This document shows, piece after piece, positions 8,342 to 34,156 of a stretch of DNA of 35,993 bases. Position numbers and translations under genes: made by a program. The notes beneath the pieces were generated by a model that saw only the letters and a list, made by a program, of their open reading frames with translations, searched no databases and was not told where the DNA came from. The DNA comes from a virus (lineage: Duplodnaviria; Heunggongvirae; Uroviricota; Caudoviricetes), in IMG/VR virus record IMGVR_UViG_2585427748_000014, positions 1-35,993 of that record, one strand, 5' to 3'. How positions within the stretch are numbered: position 1 is the stretch's first letter; every line of letters starts with the position of its first letter.

Positions 8342-9094
8342 ATGAACCTTGAAGCCTTACCAAAATATTACTCCCCAAAATCTCCAAAATTGAGTGATGA
8401 CGCACCGGCGACAGGCTCGGGTGGTTTAACAATTACAGATGTGATGGCTGCGCAGGGGATGGTGCAGTCGAAAGCACCGCTTGGGTTTTCCTTATTCCTG
8501 GCAAAAGTTGGTGTTCAGGATCCTCAGTTTGCGATTGAAGGTCTGCTCAATTACGCGATGGCACTGGATAACCCGACATTGAACAAATTGAGTGAAGAAA
8601 CCCGGCTACAGATCATTCCTTACCTTGTGAATTTTGCCTTTGCTGATTATTCCAGGTCTGCGGCAAGTAAGGCTCGCTGTGAGCATTGTGCTGGTACTGG
8701 ATTTCATAATGTATTGCGCGAAGTGGTGAAACACTCCAGAAGCGGGGAGTCTGTTATCAAGGAAGAGTGGGTGAAGGAACTATGTCAGCATTGTCATGGT
8801 AAGGGAGAAGTCAGCACAGCGTGCAGAGGGTGTAAGGGTAAAGGTATTGTCCTGGATGAAAAAAGAACCCGGCTTCATGGCACGCCTGTTTATAAGATTT
8901 GTGGGCGTTGCAATGGAAACCGGTTTAGCCGTTTACCAACCACACTGGCGCGGCTTCATGTCCAGAAGCTGGTACCAGACCTGACGGATTATCAGTGGTA
9001 CAAAGGATATGCAGATGTCATTGATAAACTGGTTACAAAGTGCTGGCAGGAGGAAGCTTACGCTGAAGCACAATTGAGAAGGGTGACGAGATAA
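8342..9094 (+). CDS. Q: Late-gene antitermination protein Q
   Basis: 250 aa with CxxC zinc-binding pairs (CEHCAGTG, CQHCHGKG, CRGCKGKG, CGRC); positioned before the lysis genes. Confidence 0.8.
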   Translation: MNLEALPKYYSPKSPKLSDDAPATGSGGLTITDVMAAQGMVQSKAPLGFSLFLAKVGVQDPQFAIEGLLNYAMALDNPTLNKLSEETRLQIIPYLVNFAFADYSRSAASKARCEHCAGTGFHNVLREVVKHSRSGESVIKEEWVKELCQHCHGKGEVSTACRGCKGKGIVLDEKRTRLHGTPVYKICGRCNGNRFSRLPTTLARLHVQKLVPDLTDYQWYKGYADVIDKLVTKCWQEEAYAEAQLRRVTR

Positions 9095-9180
9095 GCGATT
9101 TTCGCCGAAGATAACGACATAATGCTTGTGTTTCTCAAAAAATATGGATAAGATTTTCTCAACGATGGGGCTTGTGTATC

Positions 9181-9226
9181 TATCGTTGAACGATTTTTAC
9201 GACCTCGCTATTGCGAGGTTTTTTTA
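9181..9226 (+). terminator. Tandem rho-independent terminators downstream of Q (tR'-like): hairpin 9203-9218 CCTCGCTATTGCGAGG plus T-run, preceded by a smaller hairpin plus T-run
   Basis: GC-rich stems followed by U tracts on the + strand. Confidence 0.7.
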
Positions 9227-9262
9227 TGGTTTTTTTCTATTCAATCTACATCAAAATCAATG

Positions 9263-9271
9263 TGTTATAAT
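9263..9271 (+). promoter_or_regulatory. Extended -10 promoter (TGtTATAAT) upstream of the moron gene at 9309
   Basis: Perfect TATAAT at 9266-9271 with TG at 9263-9264. Confidence 0.5.
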
Positions 9272-9308
9272 GTTTTCTGTAAAACAACATTAAAAACAGG
9301 AGAACATT

Positions 9309-9578
9309 ATGAAACTGACCTCTATCCATCTTGAAATACTACGTCGAGTGAATGAATTGCAGCCAAAGGATTCTAGAATTCAGGCTGCATCATTACCTCA
9401 TCTCTCAGCAAAAGAGGTTAATTTTGCTATTTCAGATCTTGCTGATATAGGTTTTATCGATGTTATACGAAGCAAATCTGCCGAAGGTGGATTGATTGCT
9501 AATGAGATAACGTCAAAAGGTTTTGCTTTTTTGAGTGAGATTGGCGCTGAAAAAAATTCATCGATGAGCACTCATTGA
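9309..9578 (+). CDS. Small winged-helix-like protein (89 aa), A+T-rich moron gene
   Basis: AGGAG Shine-Dalgarno; wHTH-like features (LEILRRVNELQ...ISDLADIGFIDVIRS); A+T-rich relative to neighbours. Confidence 0.5.
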   Translation: MKLTSIHLEILRRVNELQPKDSRIQAASLPHLSAKEVNFAISDLADIGFIDVIRSKSAEGGLIANEITSKGFAFLSEIGAEKNSSMSTH

Positions 9579-9592
9579 TTTCTGCTTCAATC

Positions 9593-9610
9593 GGCTGCCA
9601 ATTGGCAGCC
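9593..9610. promoter_or_regulatory. Perfect 18-bp palindrome GGCTGCCAATTGGCAGCC (hairpin or dimeric-regulator site)
   Basis: Perfect inverted repeat read from the sequence; a related copy lies at 10616-10633. Confidence 0.5.
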
Positions 9611-9775
9611 TAAACTGTAAAGTGAATTTAAAATCGCCTACAATTGATGCTTAAATTTTGTTCTGTATCATCTGCAGGTTTAGGGATATCACAGTAGCTT
9701 TCTGACAAGAAGAGTTCTTTTCTTCTACCAATGAAGTGGTTATGTTAACCTGCGCTAAATCGAGACTGGTGCGGA

Positions 9776-10582
9776 GTGGAATCGAAAGTGTCATATTTTT
9801 ACAGAAGCAAGAATATTTCAGGTGTTTCTATAAATGAAGATAGCTTGATTAGCTTAAGCACGGCAATTGTCGAACGCTGCGTTAAAATGAATGAGCAAGC
9901 TCAAAAGGAAAGTAGGGAAGTTTGTGCCCAATGTGTTTTTTTTATTTTGTTCGATGGTAAGGGATATAAAGTTGATTCTATCGGTGAGCTTGTGAAATAC
10001 TTTAGACAGGCCACTAGGATTGATCAAATAATTTTTACTATTGAAACTTATCAAAGTCGACAGTCTAACAGGATGAATGGATCTTGGATGGAGCTACGAA
10101 TTGATGAGAGGAATTCAAATAGCAGCACAATGATTGTAGCATCGGAAGATAATGAGTGGGTTGACTCGTTATGGATTACGATTCAGGATTTACTTAACAA
10201 GTGCAAAAATAAATTTAGATTTTTTAGAACAGCTTGGACTATGTTAAGTATCCAGATTTCAGGTGTGACAGTTGGCTTTTTGCTTAGCTTATGGACAGCC
10301 TCAAAACTGGCGCCAAAACTATCAATCGATGGTGCATTTGCTTTATCATTTATTTGTATCTTTATTTTGTTTTCGAACTTATGGAGCTTTGCTATTCCAT
10401 TAATAATTAAGCTTATCGACTTTTTGTTTCCTAGTGTTAAGTTTGTTATTAATGGTAAAAATTACTTTCACTGGAGTGTCCAGGCTATAATTGGAGCGAT
10501 TGCCAGTGCGGTTATATTATATTTTATTAGCTCCATGTTGCTTTTTGCATTAGAAATGTTAAATAGCATCATTAAGAAATAG
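9776..10582 (+). CDS. Hypothetical membrane protein: soluble N-terminal domain plus three C-terminal transmembrane helices (A+T-rich moron); start uncertain (GTG 9776 or a downstream start)
   Basis: Three hydrophobic segments in the C-terminal third; A+T-rich; flanked by related hairpins. Confidence 0.5.
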   Translation: MESKVSYFYRSKNISGVSINEDSLISLSTAIVERCVKMNEQAQKESREVCAQCVFFILFDGKGYKVDSIGELVKYFRQATRIDQIIFTIETYQSRQSNRMNGSWMELRIDERNSNSSTMIVASEDNEWVDSLWITIQDLLNKCKNKFRFFRTAWTMLSIQISGVTVGFLLSLWTASKLAPKLSIDGAFALSFICIFILFSNLWSFAIPLIIKLIDFLFPSVKFVINGKNYFHWSVQAIIGAIASAVILYFISSMLLFALEMLNSIIKK

Positions 10583-10615
10583 TTAATGAATTAGTTATAA
10601 TTACATCAATTCTAT

Positions 10616-10640
10616 GGCTGCCAAATGGTGGCCTTTTTTA
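10616..10640 (+). terminator. Rho-independent terminator after the moron membrane gene (GGCTGCCAAATGGTGGCC plus T-run)
   Basis: 7-bp stem (including G-U pairs) followed by TTTTTT. Confidence 0.6.
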
Positions 10641-10690
10641 TTCCTCTCATTTCTATTTCTGAGAGGACTCACTGCAATAAGAGGTGGCTA

Positions 10691-11077
10691 ATGTCCGATC
10701 CGATTTCCGGCACAGGGTTAGCTGGTGGAGCCCTAACGGGCGCTAGTATTTATGGACTGCTGACCGGAACTGATTACGGCGTTGTATTTGGCGCATTTGC
10801 AGGGGCTGTATTCTATATAGCAACAGCAGCAGATCTGAGTGCATCGCGTCGACTGGCATATTTTATCGTGTCATATATTGCTGGGATCCTTTGCTCTGGG
10901 TTGGTTGGCTCCAAGCTGGCAAACTTGACCGGATACAGTGATAAACCTCTGGATGCTATTGGTGCCGTAATCGTCTCTGCTTTAGCCGTTAAAATCCTGA
11001 CGTTCCTGAATAATCAGGATATCGGCTCCCTGGGGGGGCTCATAACGCGCCGGGGAGGTTCAGGTGGAGCTAAATGA
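10691..11077 (+). CDS. Putative holin (multi-TM small membrane protein)
   Basis: AAGAGG Shine-Dalgarno; Gly/Ala-rich hydrophobic segments; first gene of the lysis cassette after Q. Confidence 0.6.
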   Translation: MSDPISGTGLAGGALTGASIYGLLTGTDYGVVFGAFAGAVFYIATAADLSASRRLAYFIVSYIAGILCSGLVGSKLANLTGYSDKPLDAIGAVIVSALAVKILTFLNNQDIGSLGGLITRRGGSGGAK

Positions 11078-11345
11078 CCCGACAGCAACTATTAATGCGC
11101 TGTTATGTGCTTGTGTTGTTATTACTCTGATGTTTTATCGTCGTGGTGATTCGCGGCATCGTCCTTGGGTTTCACGTTTAGCCTGGCTGATTACTGTTAC
11201 ATACAGTGCTGTTCCGTTGGCCTATCTCTGTGGGATTTATCCTCACTCCTCATGGCTCATTATCGTGGCGAATACTATTTTTCTTTCCGTGCTGGTGGCC
11301 GTCAGAGGCAACGTTGCACGTCTGGTTGATCATCTGAGGCACTAA
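11064..11345 (+). CDS. Second lysis-cassette membrane protein (holin/antiholin-like, 3 TM), GTG start
   Basis: GGGGAGG 5 nt upstream of GTG 11064; overlaps the holin 3' end; three hydrophobic helices. Confidence 0.45.
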   Translation: MELNDPTATINALLCACVVITLMFYRRGDSRHRPWVSRLAWLITVTYSAVPLAYLCGIYPHSSWLIIVANTIFLSVLVAVRGNVARLVDHLRH

Positions 11346-11962
11346 TGAACCAACAATTATTTCAAAAGGCGGCTGGTATTAGCGCCGGGCTGGCTGCGCG
11401 CTGGTTTCCGCACATTGATGCTGCAATGAAAGAGTTTGGAATCACAGCAGTTAACGATCAGGCCATGTTCATTGCACAAGTTGGGCATGAATCTGCTGGT
11501 TTTACCTCGCTGGTGGAAAGCTTCAACTACTCGGTAGACGGGCTGAAGAAAACCTTTAGTAAACGCCTGACGCCTTATCAGTGTGAAATGCTGGGGCGTG
11601 TCGATGGTAAGCAGGTAGCCCACCAGCCGCAAATAGCCAATCTGGTATATGGTGACCGCATGGGGAATAACAGCCAGGGTGACGGCTGGAAATATCGCGG
11701 TCGTGGCCTGCTTCAAATCACCGGCCGCGAGAACTACGCCAAATGCGGTGCGGCGCTGAAGTTGGATCTGATCAGCACACCAGAGTTGCTGACACAGGAG
11801 AAACATGCAGCCCGTTCTGCTGCATGGTATTTCACATTACGTGGTTGTCTGATGTATTCAGGTGATGTTGTCCGTGTAACGCAGATCATCAACGGTGGCC
11901 AGAATGGACTGGCTGACAGAAATAGTCGTTATAACAAAGCGCGGGCGGCGTTGCTGGTATGA
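11345..11962 (+). CDS. Endolysin, glycoside hydrolase family 19 (chitinase-like lysozyme)
   Basis: Motifs [12 protein letters not shown] and [13 protein letters not shown] typical of GH19 phage endolysins. Confidence 0.85.
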
Positions 11963-12561: not shown

Positions 12562-12837
12562 ATGTCAAAGCAAGGATATGCAGTGAGTGGTCATAGTGAT
12601 GGTTTAGCAGATATTTTGAGCATTGTAATTGTATTAGCAGTGGAACATTGGATTATCGCATCTCTCATAGTTGGTTTGATTATGTATCTAGTGGGGGCGA
12701 GCATAAACGAAAATGCTCAGACAAATGCCGGTGCCATTGCATCGGGAATCATAGGGGTATGTGGTCAATTTATTTTTGGTTTTGGCGTTCTGGCTAGCAT
12801 TATTGGGATTGTTAAATTCATTTGGACCCACACCTGA
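12562..12837 (+). CDS. Small hypothetical membrane protein (91 aa, 2 TM), A+T-rich moron
   Basis: Two hydrophobic helices; A+T-rich; TATAAT-like element upstream and a strong terminator downstream. Confidence 0.45.
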   Translation: MSKQGYAVSGHSDGLADILSIVIVLAVEHWIIASLIVGLIMYLVGASINENAQTNAGAIASGIIGVCGQFIFGFGVLASIIGIVKFIWTHT

Positions 12838-32390: not shown

Positions 32391-32410
32391 CGCGGTTTTA
32401 TTTATTTTAC
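32376..32410. terminator. Bidirectional rho-independent terminator between convergent genes (ACCGCGC-AATA-GCGCGGT flanked by A- and T-runs)
   Basis: Perfect 7-bp GC stem with an A tract upstream and a T tract downstream. Confidence 0.75.
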
Positions 32411-33421
32411 TGCTAAAATTCGTTTTCTTAGCATCAGCTCTAAAGGCTCCTCAACTAATTTATAAAGTATGATTGAGACTATGGTTATTATAACAAGGAG
32501 CGCTATTAAATAGAGTGGTCCGGGGTTATGTCCAAAGATTTTAAAGCAAAATAATATAATGGGTTGATGAATTAAATAAAAAATAAATGATGATTTCCCT
32601 AATAGCTCTAGGGTTTTTGAACTGAGGATAGTATGAATGACTCCATTTCTTAGATAGATGCATGAAGTAAAGAATATTACCATGGGGAGTAAATAATATA
32701 ACGAATAACGTAGACTATTATTTATGTTGTTGCTATAATATATAGCTATTAGCAGAGGTAATAGTGAAATTAAAAACAAAAGGCTGTCGACTGTCTGCTG
32801 TCGGCTGTTTTTCCAGCAAGCGTAAATAATCATGCCGCAAATAAATTCTACCAAGCGGCTTACTGGGAATATATAATATAACCAGTGATTAAGTTCTTCT
32901 GTTTGTATAATTTTTAAAAAATATATAGTTAATAGTAGAGTTATAATTGATATTGCAGTGATTACTTTCTTTGTAATTGATGTATAAATCAACGGAATAA
33001 ACATTAAATAAAAAAACAGCTCATCAGACAAAGACCATGATACACCATTTAATGAGAAGTAGTAATCCTCCTTTGGTATCCAACTTTGCATTAATAAAAT
33101 ATTTGTTAAGGTTTTTGAAAAATCAAAGTTCTTTAAGTGAATGGTTAGTAAAATAAATGGCATGGCTAATAATAGATGCATTGGAACAATTCTTGCCAAT
33201 CTTAAAAGAATAAACTGTCTTTTACTTGTTACTTCATTTTTTAGCTTGTCTTCATATGAATATGAAAGAATGAAGCCAGATAAAATAAAGAAAAAGGAAA
33301 CGCCAATAAATCCCTGGGAAAACATTTCTTTTACAAAAACACCAAAATAGTCTGTATTTAAATGGCATAAATAAACCATTAATGCAGCTATAAATCTGAG
33401 TCCTGTTAAGTGGCGAAGCAT
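32402..33421 (-). CDS. Acyltransferase family 3 membrane protein (O-antigen acetyltransferase-like conversion gene)
   Basis: ATG at 33421 with AGAGG Shine-Dalgarno; N-terminal motif RHLTGLRFIAALMVYLCH typical of acyltransferase-3; about 10 predicted TM helices; A+T-rich. Confidence 0.8.
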   Translation of the reverse strand: MLRHLTGLRFIAALMVYLCHLNTDYFGVFVKEMFSQGFIGVSFFFILSGFILSYSYEDKLKNEVTSKRQFILLRLARIVPMHLLLAMPFILLTIHLKNFDFSKTLTNILLMQSWIPKEDYYFSLNGVSWSLSDELFFYLMFIPLIYTSITKKVITAISIITLLLTIYFLKIIQTEELNHWLYYIFPVSRLVEFICGMIIYACWKNSRQQTVDSLLFLISLLPLLIAIYYSNNINNSLRYSLYYLLPMVIFFTSCIYLRNGVIHTILSSKTLELLGKSSFIFYLIHQPIILFCFKIFGHNPGPLYLIALLVIITIVSIILYKLVEEPLELMLRKRILAVK

Positions 33422-34156
33422 CAATAACCTCTTGTTATGAAGATAAAGCAATTCAAAAGAGGCATTTTATGACTGTAGGGGATTGGTGTCTATATGAATG
33501 AGTAATCTGGTTTTTAAAATCTTCTTTAATTACAAAATAAACCTTTCTTAGGCTATAGATTTGTGGCTGTAACACTGTGTGTCCACGACATTGAGACATC
33601 CTTCCGCTTTGCTATAGATGTGGAATTCAGGATCAAGCGATATCGGACTCATCCTCAGCACCACCCGGTTAATCTGGATAACGGGAGAAGGGAAGCGCTG
33701 CCAGAAGATGATGATGGTTACAGTTCTGCACTGGCTATTCTGCACTGGCTATATTCGTGGTGATCACTTACATAATTAATGACGCCAGGAATACGGAGTT
33801 TGATGATTGCCTGGTGATGTGAGAAAAAACTCATACACACAAAGCTTTGCACTGGATTGCAAGGCTTTGTGCTATTCGATAGCACGAGTTTGAATGAAAA
33901 TCAGCCGTTATCGATTTTACGTATTTTTGTATGAGAGGATTTTTACCTCCTCCCACCGATCCTCCATAACTTTACGACACTGTCTCTAGGACTGCTATGT
34001 GCCAAGAGCGGAATTTTCTAATATTATGCTGCATTCGTTTAAGGGGAGCAGATCAGCTAACGACTCCTACGTCCTGGGGAAAGGTCACATATGCTAAACA
34101 GCAGCTCAGCAAAGAGAAGAGCGAATTTGGTAACGGGAAACCGTTATGATATGAAT

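Follow-up and report, generated by a model that had tools for sequence, protein, structure and literature searches.

Two adjacent genes lie between the antiterminator gene Q and the lysis genes of a Caudoviricetes genome in IMG/VR (record IMGVR_UViG_2585427748_000014; all 35,993 nucleotides were analysed and are referred to here as the window), and they raise the question of whether such a pair forms one regulated unit or two separate acquisitions. The first gene, orf89, encodes a small winged-helix-like protein and the second encodes an inner-membrane protein with three transmembrane (TM) helices. The initial annotation, made from the sequence alone, had proposed that they constitute a regulated exclusion or abortive-infection module in which a DNA-binding protein is paired with a membrane effector. 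Our comparison with diverged relatives points to a different arrangement, in which the interval probably holds two independent single-gene morons stacked between Q with its tR' terminator and the lysis cassette. Comparative sequence evidence indicates that the two stacked units are autonomous and that a terminator stands ahead of the lysis genes (Table 1).

The first line of evidence comes from orf89 homologues that occur without the membrane gene. A word-index search returned only near-identical copies of orf89, and diverged homologues were recovered by tblastn of sequenced phages together with a pattern scan of IMG/VR. These comprise two Klebsiella phages and 20 IMG/VR contigs, with 35–51% identity to the window protein. 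In all 22 loci the gene lies approximately 150 nucleotides past the stop codon of Q, which belongs to one of three types. A lysis gene (holin or lysozyme, as recognised with a limited reference set) directly follows the orf89 homologue in 14 of the 22 loci, and several kinds of lysis cassette are represented. The membrane gene was found near none of these 22 homologues.

The membrane gene likewise occurs without orf89. Homologues with 51–79% identity are located directly 5' of holin genes in enteric phages that carry other Q types, and the holins belong to two families (Phage_holin_8 and Phage_holin_2_1). The gene upstream of these homologues is not orf89 but an N6_N4 DNA methyltransferase of ~350 residues, and no orf89 was identified at diverged membrane-gene loci. 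In L005 and L013, co-linear homology with the window begins at 9739 and continues through the membrane gene, the terminator and the holins. With more than 20 diverged orf89 homologues lacking the membrane gene, and membrane-gene homologues lacking orf89, the coupling of regulator and effector that had been proposed did not survive comparison. As a separate observation, methyltransferase plus membrane gene is itself a recurring cargo of the same slot (L005, 4003–6831; L013, 3925–6696; L010, 2188–4488); L005 and L013 also carry a gene for a hypothetical protein of 200–226 residues upstream, and the methyltransferase is largely deleted in L009.

The second line of evidence is the hairpin pair that surrounds the membrane gene. 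The initial annotation had described a perfect palindrome 5' of this gene and a related hairpin with a T-run 3' of it; both are present, and their relatedness exceeds chance, with two matches at ≤3 mismatches against 0.04 expected and none of 100 shuffles reaching two. The 18-bp perfect palindrome GGCTGCCAATTGGCAGCC is unremarkable alone, being found in 16% of composition-preserving shuffles; as RNA it folds with -15.7 kcal/mol and lacks a U-run. The downstream hairpin belongs to a recurrent type: in L074 and L075, GGCTGCC-N4-GGYGGCC and a T-run separate unrelated cargo from the Phage_holin_8 gene directly downstream, and in L005 and L013 a GGCTGCC hairpin with a T-run follows the membrane gene.

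Contig L089 shows how the two hairpins of the window may be connected. The gene order in this contig is Q, tR', the promoter block, an orf89 homologue, GGCTGCCATTCGGTGGCC, T6 and the holin. The window segments 9241–9445 and 10603–10700 match parts of L089 that are only 130 nucleotides apart, and in comparison with L089 the window carries ~1 kb extra (9611–10602) between the hairpin stem and the T-run, plus a second copy of the hairpin. This arrangement argues that the palindrome at 9593–9610 is a terminator stem whose T-run now lies ~1 kb away, beyond the membrane gene. Based on this comparison, we interpret the palindrome as the stem-loop of the original orf89 terminator, now without its T-run and marking the junction of the two modules. 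An operator for the winged-helix protein, the role that the module proposal would give to the palindrome, appears unlikely, because the terminator stem is usual before this holin type (L089, L074, L075). The GGCTGCC palindrome is also absent from the Klebsiella clade of orf89, which carries an unrelated terminator; the palindrome thus does not travel with the winged-helix protein, which further argues against an operator role.

These comparisons suggest the following history. Moron 1 (~9241–9610) would consist of the extended -10 promoter, orf89 and the GGCTGCC terminator stem, and moron 2 (9611–10640) of a 128-nucleotide joint with a promoter-like site, the membrane gene and the second hairpin with its T-run. 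The ancestor probably had the order seen in L089: Q, tR', promoter, orf89, hairpin with T-run, and holin. A segment of ~1 kb with the membrane gene would then have been inserted between stem and T-run by recombination at the terminator hairpin, an event that would duplicate the hairpin and leave the first copy without a U-tract. In a lysogen, both genes would be transcribed from one or more promoters within the cassette. The first hairpin, without a U-run, would give weak termination at best and allow read-through, and the second would stop transcription ahead of the lethal lysis genes. Upon induction, Q-modified polymerase starting at pR' would read past tR' and the two hairpins and reach the holin gene.

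The distribution of the cassette is consistent with such an acquisition. The A+T-rich insert spans ~9229–10654, with a G+C content of 0.30–0.39 over 9000–10800 compared with 0.46–0.58 in the flanks. Among 5426 complete Escherichia coli genomes, 41 carry the cassette; Q is present in 2523 (90–96% nucleotide identity), and the holin leader is matched in 342. Homology to prophages that have both Q and the holins ends at 9180–9225 and restarts at 10655–10659, the match to other Q-bearing prophages reaches 9179–9224, and in ~60 more E. coli genomes the match begins at the hairpin region and the cassette is absent. In other prophages the slot contains different cargo: an 85-residue gene (L002), a 213-residue gene (L003), a 111-residue gene (UTI89, L004), a gene for 358 residues on the opposite strand (L074), or a 261-residue soluble protein (L075). 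In the Qin prophage of K-12, cspF, cspB and ynfU follow ydfT in this slot. These breakpoints and the differing cargo bear out the earlier description of the Q-to-holin interval as a cargo slot. Invariance across related prophages, which the initial annotation had named as a point against its proposal, was not observed. The cassette varies among related prophages, so its reading as moron DNA stands.

Several other properties expected of morons are also present at the locus. The insert lies between genes that enclose different cargo in related prophages and deviates in base composition. At the sequence level it has its own terminator, the hairpin plus T6 at 10616–10640, and a terminator is found 3' of the cargo gene in every homologous locus. 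Candidates for promoters active in the lysogen are consensus matches, namely a perfect extended -10 element at 9263–9271 and a promoter-like site at 9644–9671. In three E. coli assemblies (L025, L030 and L031), Q and the early genes were lost from the prophage, and the cassette and lysis genes were kept. The cassette gave no Rfam match to a structured RNA, and its intergenic regions contain no credible small open reading frames (ORFs).

The promoter assigned to orf89 by the initial annotation is present, with a perfect consensus match to the extended -10 element (TGTTATAAT). The block has a perfect TGNTATAAT, a sequence that the window contains three times, compared with an expectation of 0.84. 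The block is 29/31 identical in L089, compared with 67% nucleotide and 49–51% amino-acid identity in the coding sequence downstream. Between the window and L089 the coding sequence has diverged more than the block, which is the best available evidence and makes it probable that the promoter is real. The Klebsiella clade of orf89 has TGGTAAAAT at the equivalent position. The -10 region of the orf89 promoter (9262–9277) is complementary to the Shine-Dalgarno sequence and start codon of orf89 (9300–9315). Read-through RNA from 9255–9322 folds with -14 kcal/mol (z = -2.8), and RNA beginning past the -10 is unstructured (-0.9 kcal/mol). Pairing between the -10 and the ribosome-binding site could thereby favour translation of orf89 from transcripts of the local promoter over read-through ones.

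The initial annotation had described the product of orf89 as winged-helix-like, and profile searches are consistent with this. All 11 aligned members of the orf89 family match DUF2513 (best 1.2e-6); the window protein itself gives E = 2.4e-4 and 21.8 bits, below the Pfam cut-off of 29.6. Weak co-linear matches to HTH_45, Lrs14 and MarR_EPS were also identified. When the family profile was compared with solved structures, the top PDB entries were of MarR type (3gfj and 3f3x, E = 0.015–0.026) and covered the recognition helix and wing; YjcQ was also listed among the matches. A single-sequence AlphaFold2 (AF2) model, built without an alignment, reached a pLDDT of 54 and was discarded. We consider the winged-helix assignment reasonable but not proven, and orf89 probably encodes a DNA-binding regulator. 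A literature search yielded no paper that names the accessions or PHROGs or that gives a function for DUF2513.

The membrane gene is real and constrained, with a ratio of non-synonymous to synonymous substitution rates (dN/dS) of 0.16 against the 77%-identical homologue in L005. Of the ORF of 268 residues called in the initial annotation, the end at 10582 stands, and the start at 9776 is probably 12 nucleotides (four codons) too far 5'. PGAP sets the start at the GTG at 9788, and the N-terminus that begins there lines up with the initiator methionines of homologues as distant as 34% identity. The soluble N-terminal domain followed by three TM helices, as first described, agrees with hydropathy, the AF2 model and the charge distribution across the family, which together place the N-terminus inside and the C-terminus outside. 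Across the family, net charge averages +3.3 ahead of TM1, roughly 0 in the first loop and +2.0 in the second. The AF2 model is confident for residues 1–140 (pLDDT ~85), which adopt a beta-alpha-beta-beta-alpha-beta-alpha-beta-beta-alpha order, and the membrane part is poorly modelled.

D7 and R54 (window 9806–9808 and 9947–9949) are conserved in 94% of the family, and the enteric phage clade has S and L in their place. A PD-(D/E)xK nuclease, suggested by the motif RFDxKG, was considered and dropped, as the motif is located in a beta-hairpin loop. The nuclease idea is weakened further because the enteric phage clade has lost both D7 and R54, a joint loss that better fits a structural salt bridge than a catalytic site. 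Searches of Pfam, NCBIfam, PHROGs and PADLOC with the membrane protein and 51 diverse members gave only phrog_30208, a family of unknown function, as a consistent match. No solved structure was matched by sequence below E = 0.1, and Foldseek searches of the AF2 model gave best E values of 0.026 against PDB and 0.041 against BFVD, none convincing. Profile or fold likeness to CBASS 2TM/4TM, SLATT, PycTM or RexB was not found.

The family of this protein is widespread in bacteria. An exhaustive profile search recovered 230 clusters (50% identity) at E ≤ 1e-3, nearly all of 255–270 residues and aligning end to end. A scan of species-representative genomes identified 29 loci in Beta-, Gamma-, Zeta- and Deltaproteobacteria, Bacteroidota, Nitrospirota and Verrucomicrobia. 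Distant members were not found in IMG/VR, and a collection of sequenced phages gave neither a DNA match nor a tblastn match to the membrane protein. Such distant members, spread over at least five bacterial phyla, occur as solitary genes, and all-against-all BLAST of 38 loci revealed no conserved neighbour. A Fic gene is adjacent in three loci only, two of them from one metagenome-assembled genome. PADLOC classified pooled neighbour proteins as SoFic at up to 1.4e-119, and AbiEii, integrase and restriction-modification genes are located nearby in some loci. In L020 (44–4500), L063 and L072 (4755–6800), a same-strand Fic-domain gene lies directly 5' of a distant family member; the neighbours in L020 also include AbiEii and an integrase fragment. 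These defence-type neighbours are a weak, unquantified hint toward conflict systems.

In our interpretation, the membrane protein would be expressed in the lysogen and act alone at the inner membrane, with a sensor-like domain coupled to a three-TM module. Exclusion or abortive infection, exerted independently of orf89, is our leading guess for its function, and a tentative one; some other role in lysogenic conversion is about as likely. It is rather unlikely, though worth stating, that the family represents a new single-gene membrane-acting anti-phage system, with a cytoplasmic sensor domain and a three-TM effector, that is mobile between moron slots and defence islands. Neither the membrane protein nor the product of orf89 matched PADLOC, and the 51 diverse members gave scattered single hits at E ≥ 1e-4 only. 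Literature searches on morons and defence hotspots yielded nothing about this cassette.

Several observations weigh against parts of this interpretation. The promoters are consensus matches, one of them backed by conservation in a single diverged relative. The palindrome at 9593–9610 is perfectly symmetric including its loop, a symmetry that is unnecessary for a terminator and would be preferred by a dimeric DNA-binding protein; a secondary protein-binding use is conceivable. Segment 9611–9738 was matched only in the 41 E. coli genomes that carry the cassette. The membrane gene and orf89 co-occur at ≥99% identity in all 41 of these genomes and in all sampled assemblies, and a functional link could have been gained after the fusion. 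Frame-disrupted copies of the membrane gene exist; that of L024 has an 11-nucleotide deletion that leaves an open frame of 164 residues. As to exclusion, neither PADLOC nor the fold searches tie the membrane protein to a known defence effector, and many distant members are found among plainly housekeeping genes.

The alternative that survives best is a lysogenic-conversion factor outside defence, involved for example in envelope or stress functions, ion homeostasis or colonisation, with orf89 separately regulating genes of the host or the prophage. The many chromosomal homologues amid housekeeping genes in environmental bacteria fit this explanation, as do the non-defence cargo, such as cspB and cspF, held by the slot elsewhere, the retention of the cassette in degraded prophages without Q and the purifying selection on the family. 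No family, fold or neighbour indicates a particular physiological role, however, and the sporadic distribution with occasional SoFic, AbiE, restriction-modification and integrase neighbours fits a conflict gene slightly better; we regard this explanation as possible.

We give less credence to the membrane protein as a lysis accessory, that is, an antiholin, holin-timing or membrane-priming factor expressed late with the holins and not a moron of the lysogen. Every phage copy is located directly 5' of a holin from one of two families, the protein is a small multi-TM inner-membrane protein, and Q-antiterminated transcription must cross its gene. An intrinsic terminator nevertheless separates gene and holin in every lineage, most family members lie on chromosomes away from any lysis genes, and most prophages with the same holins lack the membrane gene. 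Hits to holin families were isolated and weak among the 51 members, and neither a consistent holin or lysis family match nor obligatory linkage to a lysis cassette was found for the membrane protein. We therefore consider this role improbable.

Least credible, and very unlikely, is the single exclusion module in which the winged-helix protein controls the effector from the palindrome: the two genes are always together in E. coli, orf89 is winged-helix-like, the symmetric palindrome lies between them and a first hairpin without a U-run would permit co-transcription, but no diverged homologue of orf89 or of the membrane gene occurs in this pairing, the palindrome is part of a terminator family that also stands between unrelated cargo and holins, it is replaced by a different terminator in the Klebsiella clade of orf89, no second copy of it lies near either promoter, and no known defence family is matched. 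A type II toxin-antitoxin pair with a helix-turn-helix antitoxin was also considered and rejected; the genes are separated by a 209-nucleotide gap containing a stable hairpin, and the pairing is not conserved.

The preferred reading, two stacked morons, is set in a prophage context. The window is an E. coli lambdoid prophage, and its positions 9100–10700 are 100% identical to the E. coli KSC1031 chromosome. Its early region encodes Cro/CI-type and LexA-family regulators, RusA, KilA-N and DUF968 proteins; 3' of the lysis region are a spanin-like gene (DUF2514), HK97-type head genes and then a sheathed tail. The tR'-type terminator was detected by a terminator scan, and its RNA folds with -13.7 kcal/mol (z = -4.75). 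At the other end of the slot, the holin leader contains a hairpin of the form CCTCTCA-N10-TGAGAGG at 10642–10665 (-10.8 kcal/mol). Hairpins of the form CCTCTCA-N(3–10)-TGAGAGG are found just 5' of the Phage_holin_8 Shine-Dalgarno sequence in L002, L003, L005, L013, L074 and L075, whatever the cargo, and may represent a holin leader element.

Table 1. Positions of the two proposed stacked units and of the genes that flank them in the window.
Feature	Coordinates	Strand	Remarks
Antiterminator Q (ydfT/quuQ type)	8342–9094	+	Left anchor of the slot; PF03589 at 3.5e-53; phrog_127
Late-operon leader ending in a tR'-type intrinsic terminator	9095–9228	+	Stem 9201–9220 plus T-run; conserved with Q
Putative promoter block of moron 1	9241–9271	+	Perfect extended -10 TGTTATAAT at 9263–9271
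orf89, putative small DUF2513/MarR-like winged-helix protein (phrog_32916)	9309–9578	+	AGGAG at 9298–9302, 6 nucleotides 5' of ATG
Perfect 18-bp palindrome GGCTGCCAATTGGCAGCC	9593–9610	.	Sole perfect palindrome of ≥16 bp in the window
Joint of the two modules	9611–9738	+	Promoter-like site TTGATG-16-TATCAT at 9644–9671 (consensus match only)
Inner-membrane protein, 264 residues (phrog_30208)	9788–10582	+	GTG start; cytoplasmic alpha/beta domain 1–140, basic linker, three TM helices
GGCTGCC hairpin GGCTGCCAAATGGTGGCC plus T6, intrinsic terminator	10616–10640	+	Terminator score; stem-loop 10616–10633; usual right boundary of the slot before Phage_holin_8
Holin leader and Phage_holin_8 gene	10642–11077	+	Right anchor of the slot; holin ORF 10691–11077; PF16931 at 1.2e-34
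Second holin	11064–11345		ORF
GH19 endolysin	11345–11962		ORF

Further features of the window lie outside the slot. On the minus strand, 32402–33451 encodes a 349-residue Acyl_transf_3 protein (2.2e-30) in an island of G+C 0.30 past the tail-fibre genes, which is probably an O-antigen-acetylating moron. The other two TGNTATAAT sites of the window are located inside this ORF, one per strand (32487 on the minus and 32731 on the plus strand). A hydrophobic protein of 91 residues with no Pfam match, encoded at 12562–12837 in a patch of low G+C (0.38–0.41) just past the DUF2514 spanin-like gene, may be another small moron. The early region contains a match to the Rfam small RNA STnc100 at 930–1152 on the minus strand (48.5 bits against a gathering threshold of 47).

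Two genes with similar palindromes look like one regulated module, and comparison shows two cargo units joined at a hairpin. The duplicated hairpin is the visible join, which suggests that cargo can be joined by recombination at the terminator before this holin type. The comparison also bounds two families with natural single-gene controls: orf89, which in many Escherichia and Klebsiella prophages is the gene next to tR' and the first past it, and the widespread three-TM family.

The closest counterparts of moron 1 are found in the Klebsiella phages ST405-OXA48phi1.2 (QBP08188.1) and vB_VIPKPNMC05 (XIU00034.1) and in contig L089. Their orf89 homologues are 35–51% identical to the window protein, share the ITSKGF motif and lie directly past tR', with an extended -10-like promoter and an intrinsic terminator ahead of the holin. 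They differ from the window in that the orf89 homologue stands alone, without the membrane gene, and the Klebsiella clade has another promoter sequence and another terminator (CCTCGCTTCGGCGGGG plus T-run). Among structurally characterised proteins, the DUF2513/MarR proteins Bacillus subtilis YjcQ (2hgc) and Sulfolobus tokodaii ST1710 (3gfj/2eb7) resemble the orf89 family in that their recognition helix and beta-wing align with it. In contrast to MarR proteins, members of the orf89 family have 79–89 residues and no MarR dimerisation helices; the window protein falls below the cut-off, and its DNA binding is putative.

Lambda RexA/RexB and the single-protein factors P22 SieA, T4 Imm and HK97 gp15 are inner-membrane exclusion proteins of prophages and phages that are expressed outside the lytic programme. 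They exemplify the kind of function that the membrane protein might have, but no sequence or fold similarity to it was detected, and the membrane protein has its own cytoplasmic domain and no conserved partner.

The stx genes of Stx phages are a moron in the Q-to-lysis slot of lambdoid phages. The window cassette occupies the same slot as these and as the cspF/cspB/ynfU morons of K-12 Qin, and its Q gene is 90.7% identical in nucleotide sequence to K-12 ydfT. Like other Q-to-lysis morons, the cassette is A+T-rich, has promoter-like and terminator signals of its own, is variable among prophages that are otherwise related and has to be traversed by Q-modified polymerase. This architecture is itself ordinary and textbook, and the cargo is uncharacterised. 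The window differs from those morons in carrying two uncharacterised proteins on what appear to be two stacked morons, with the join visible as a duplicated terminator hairpin.

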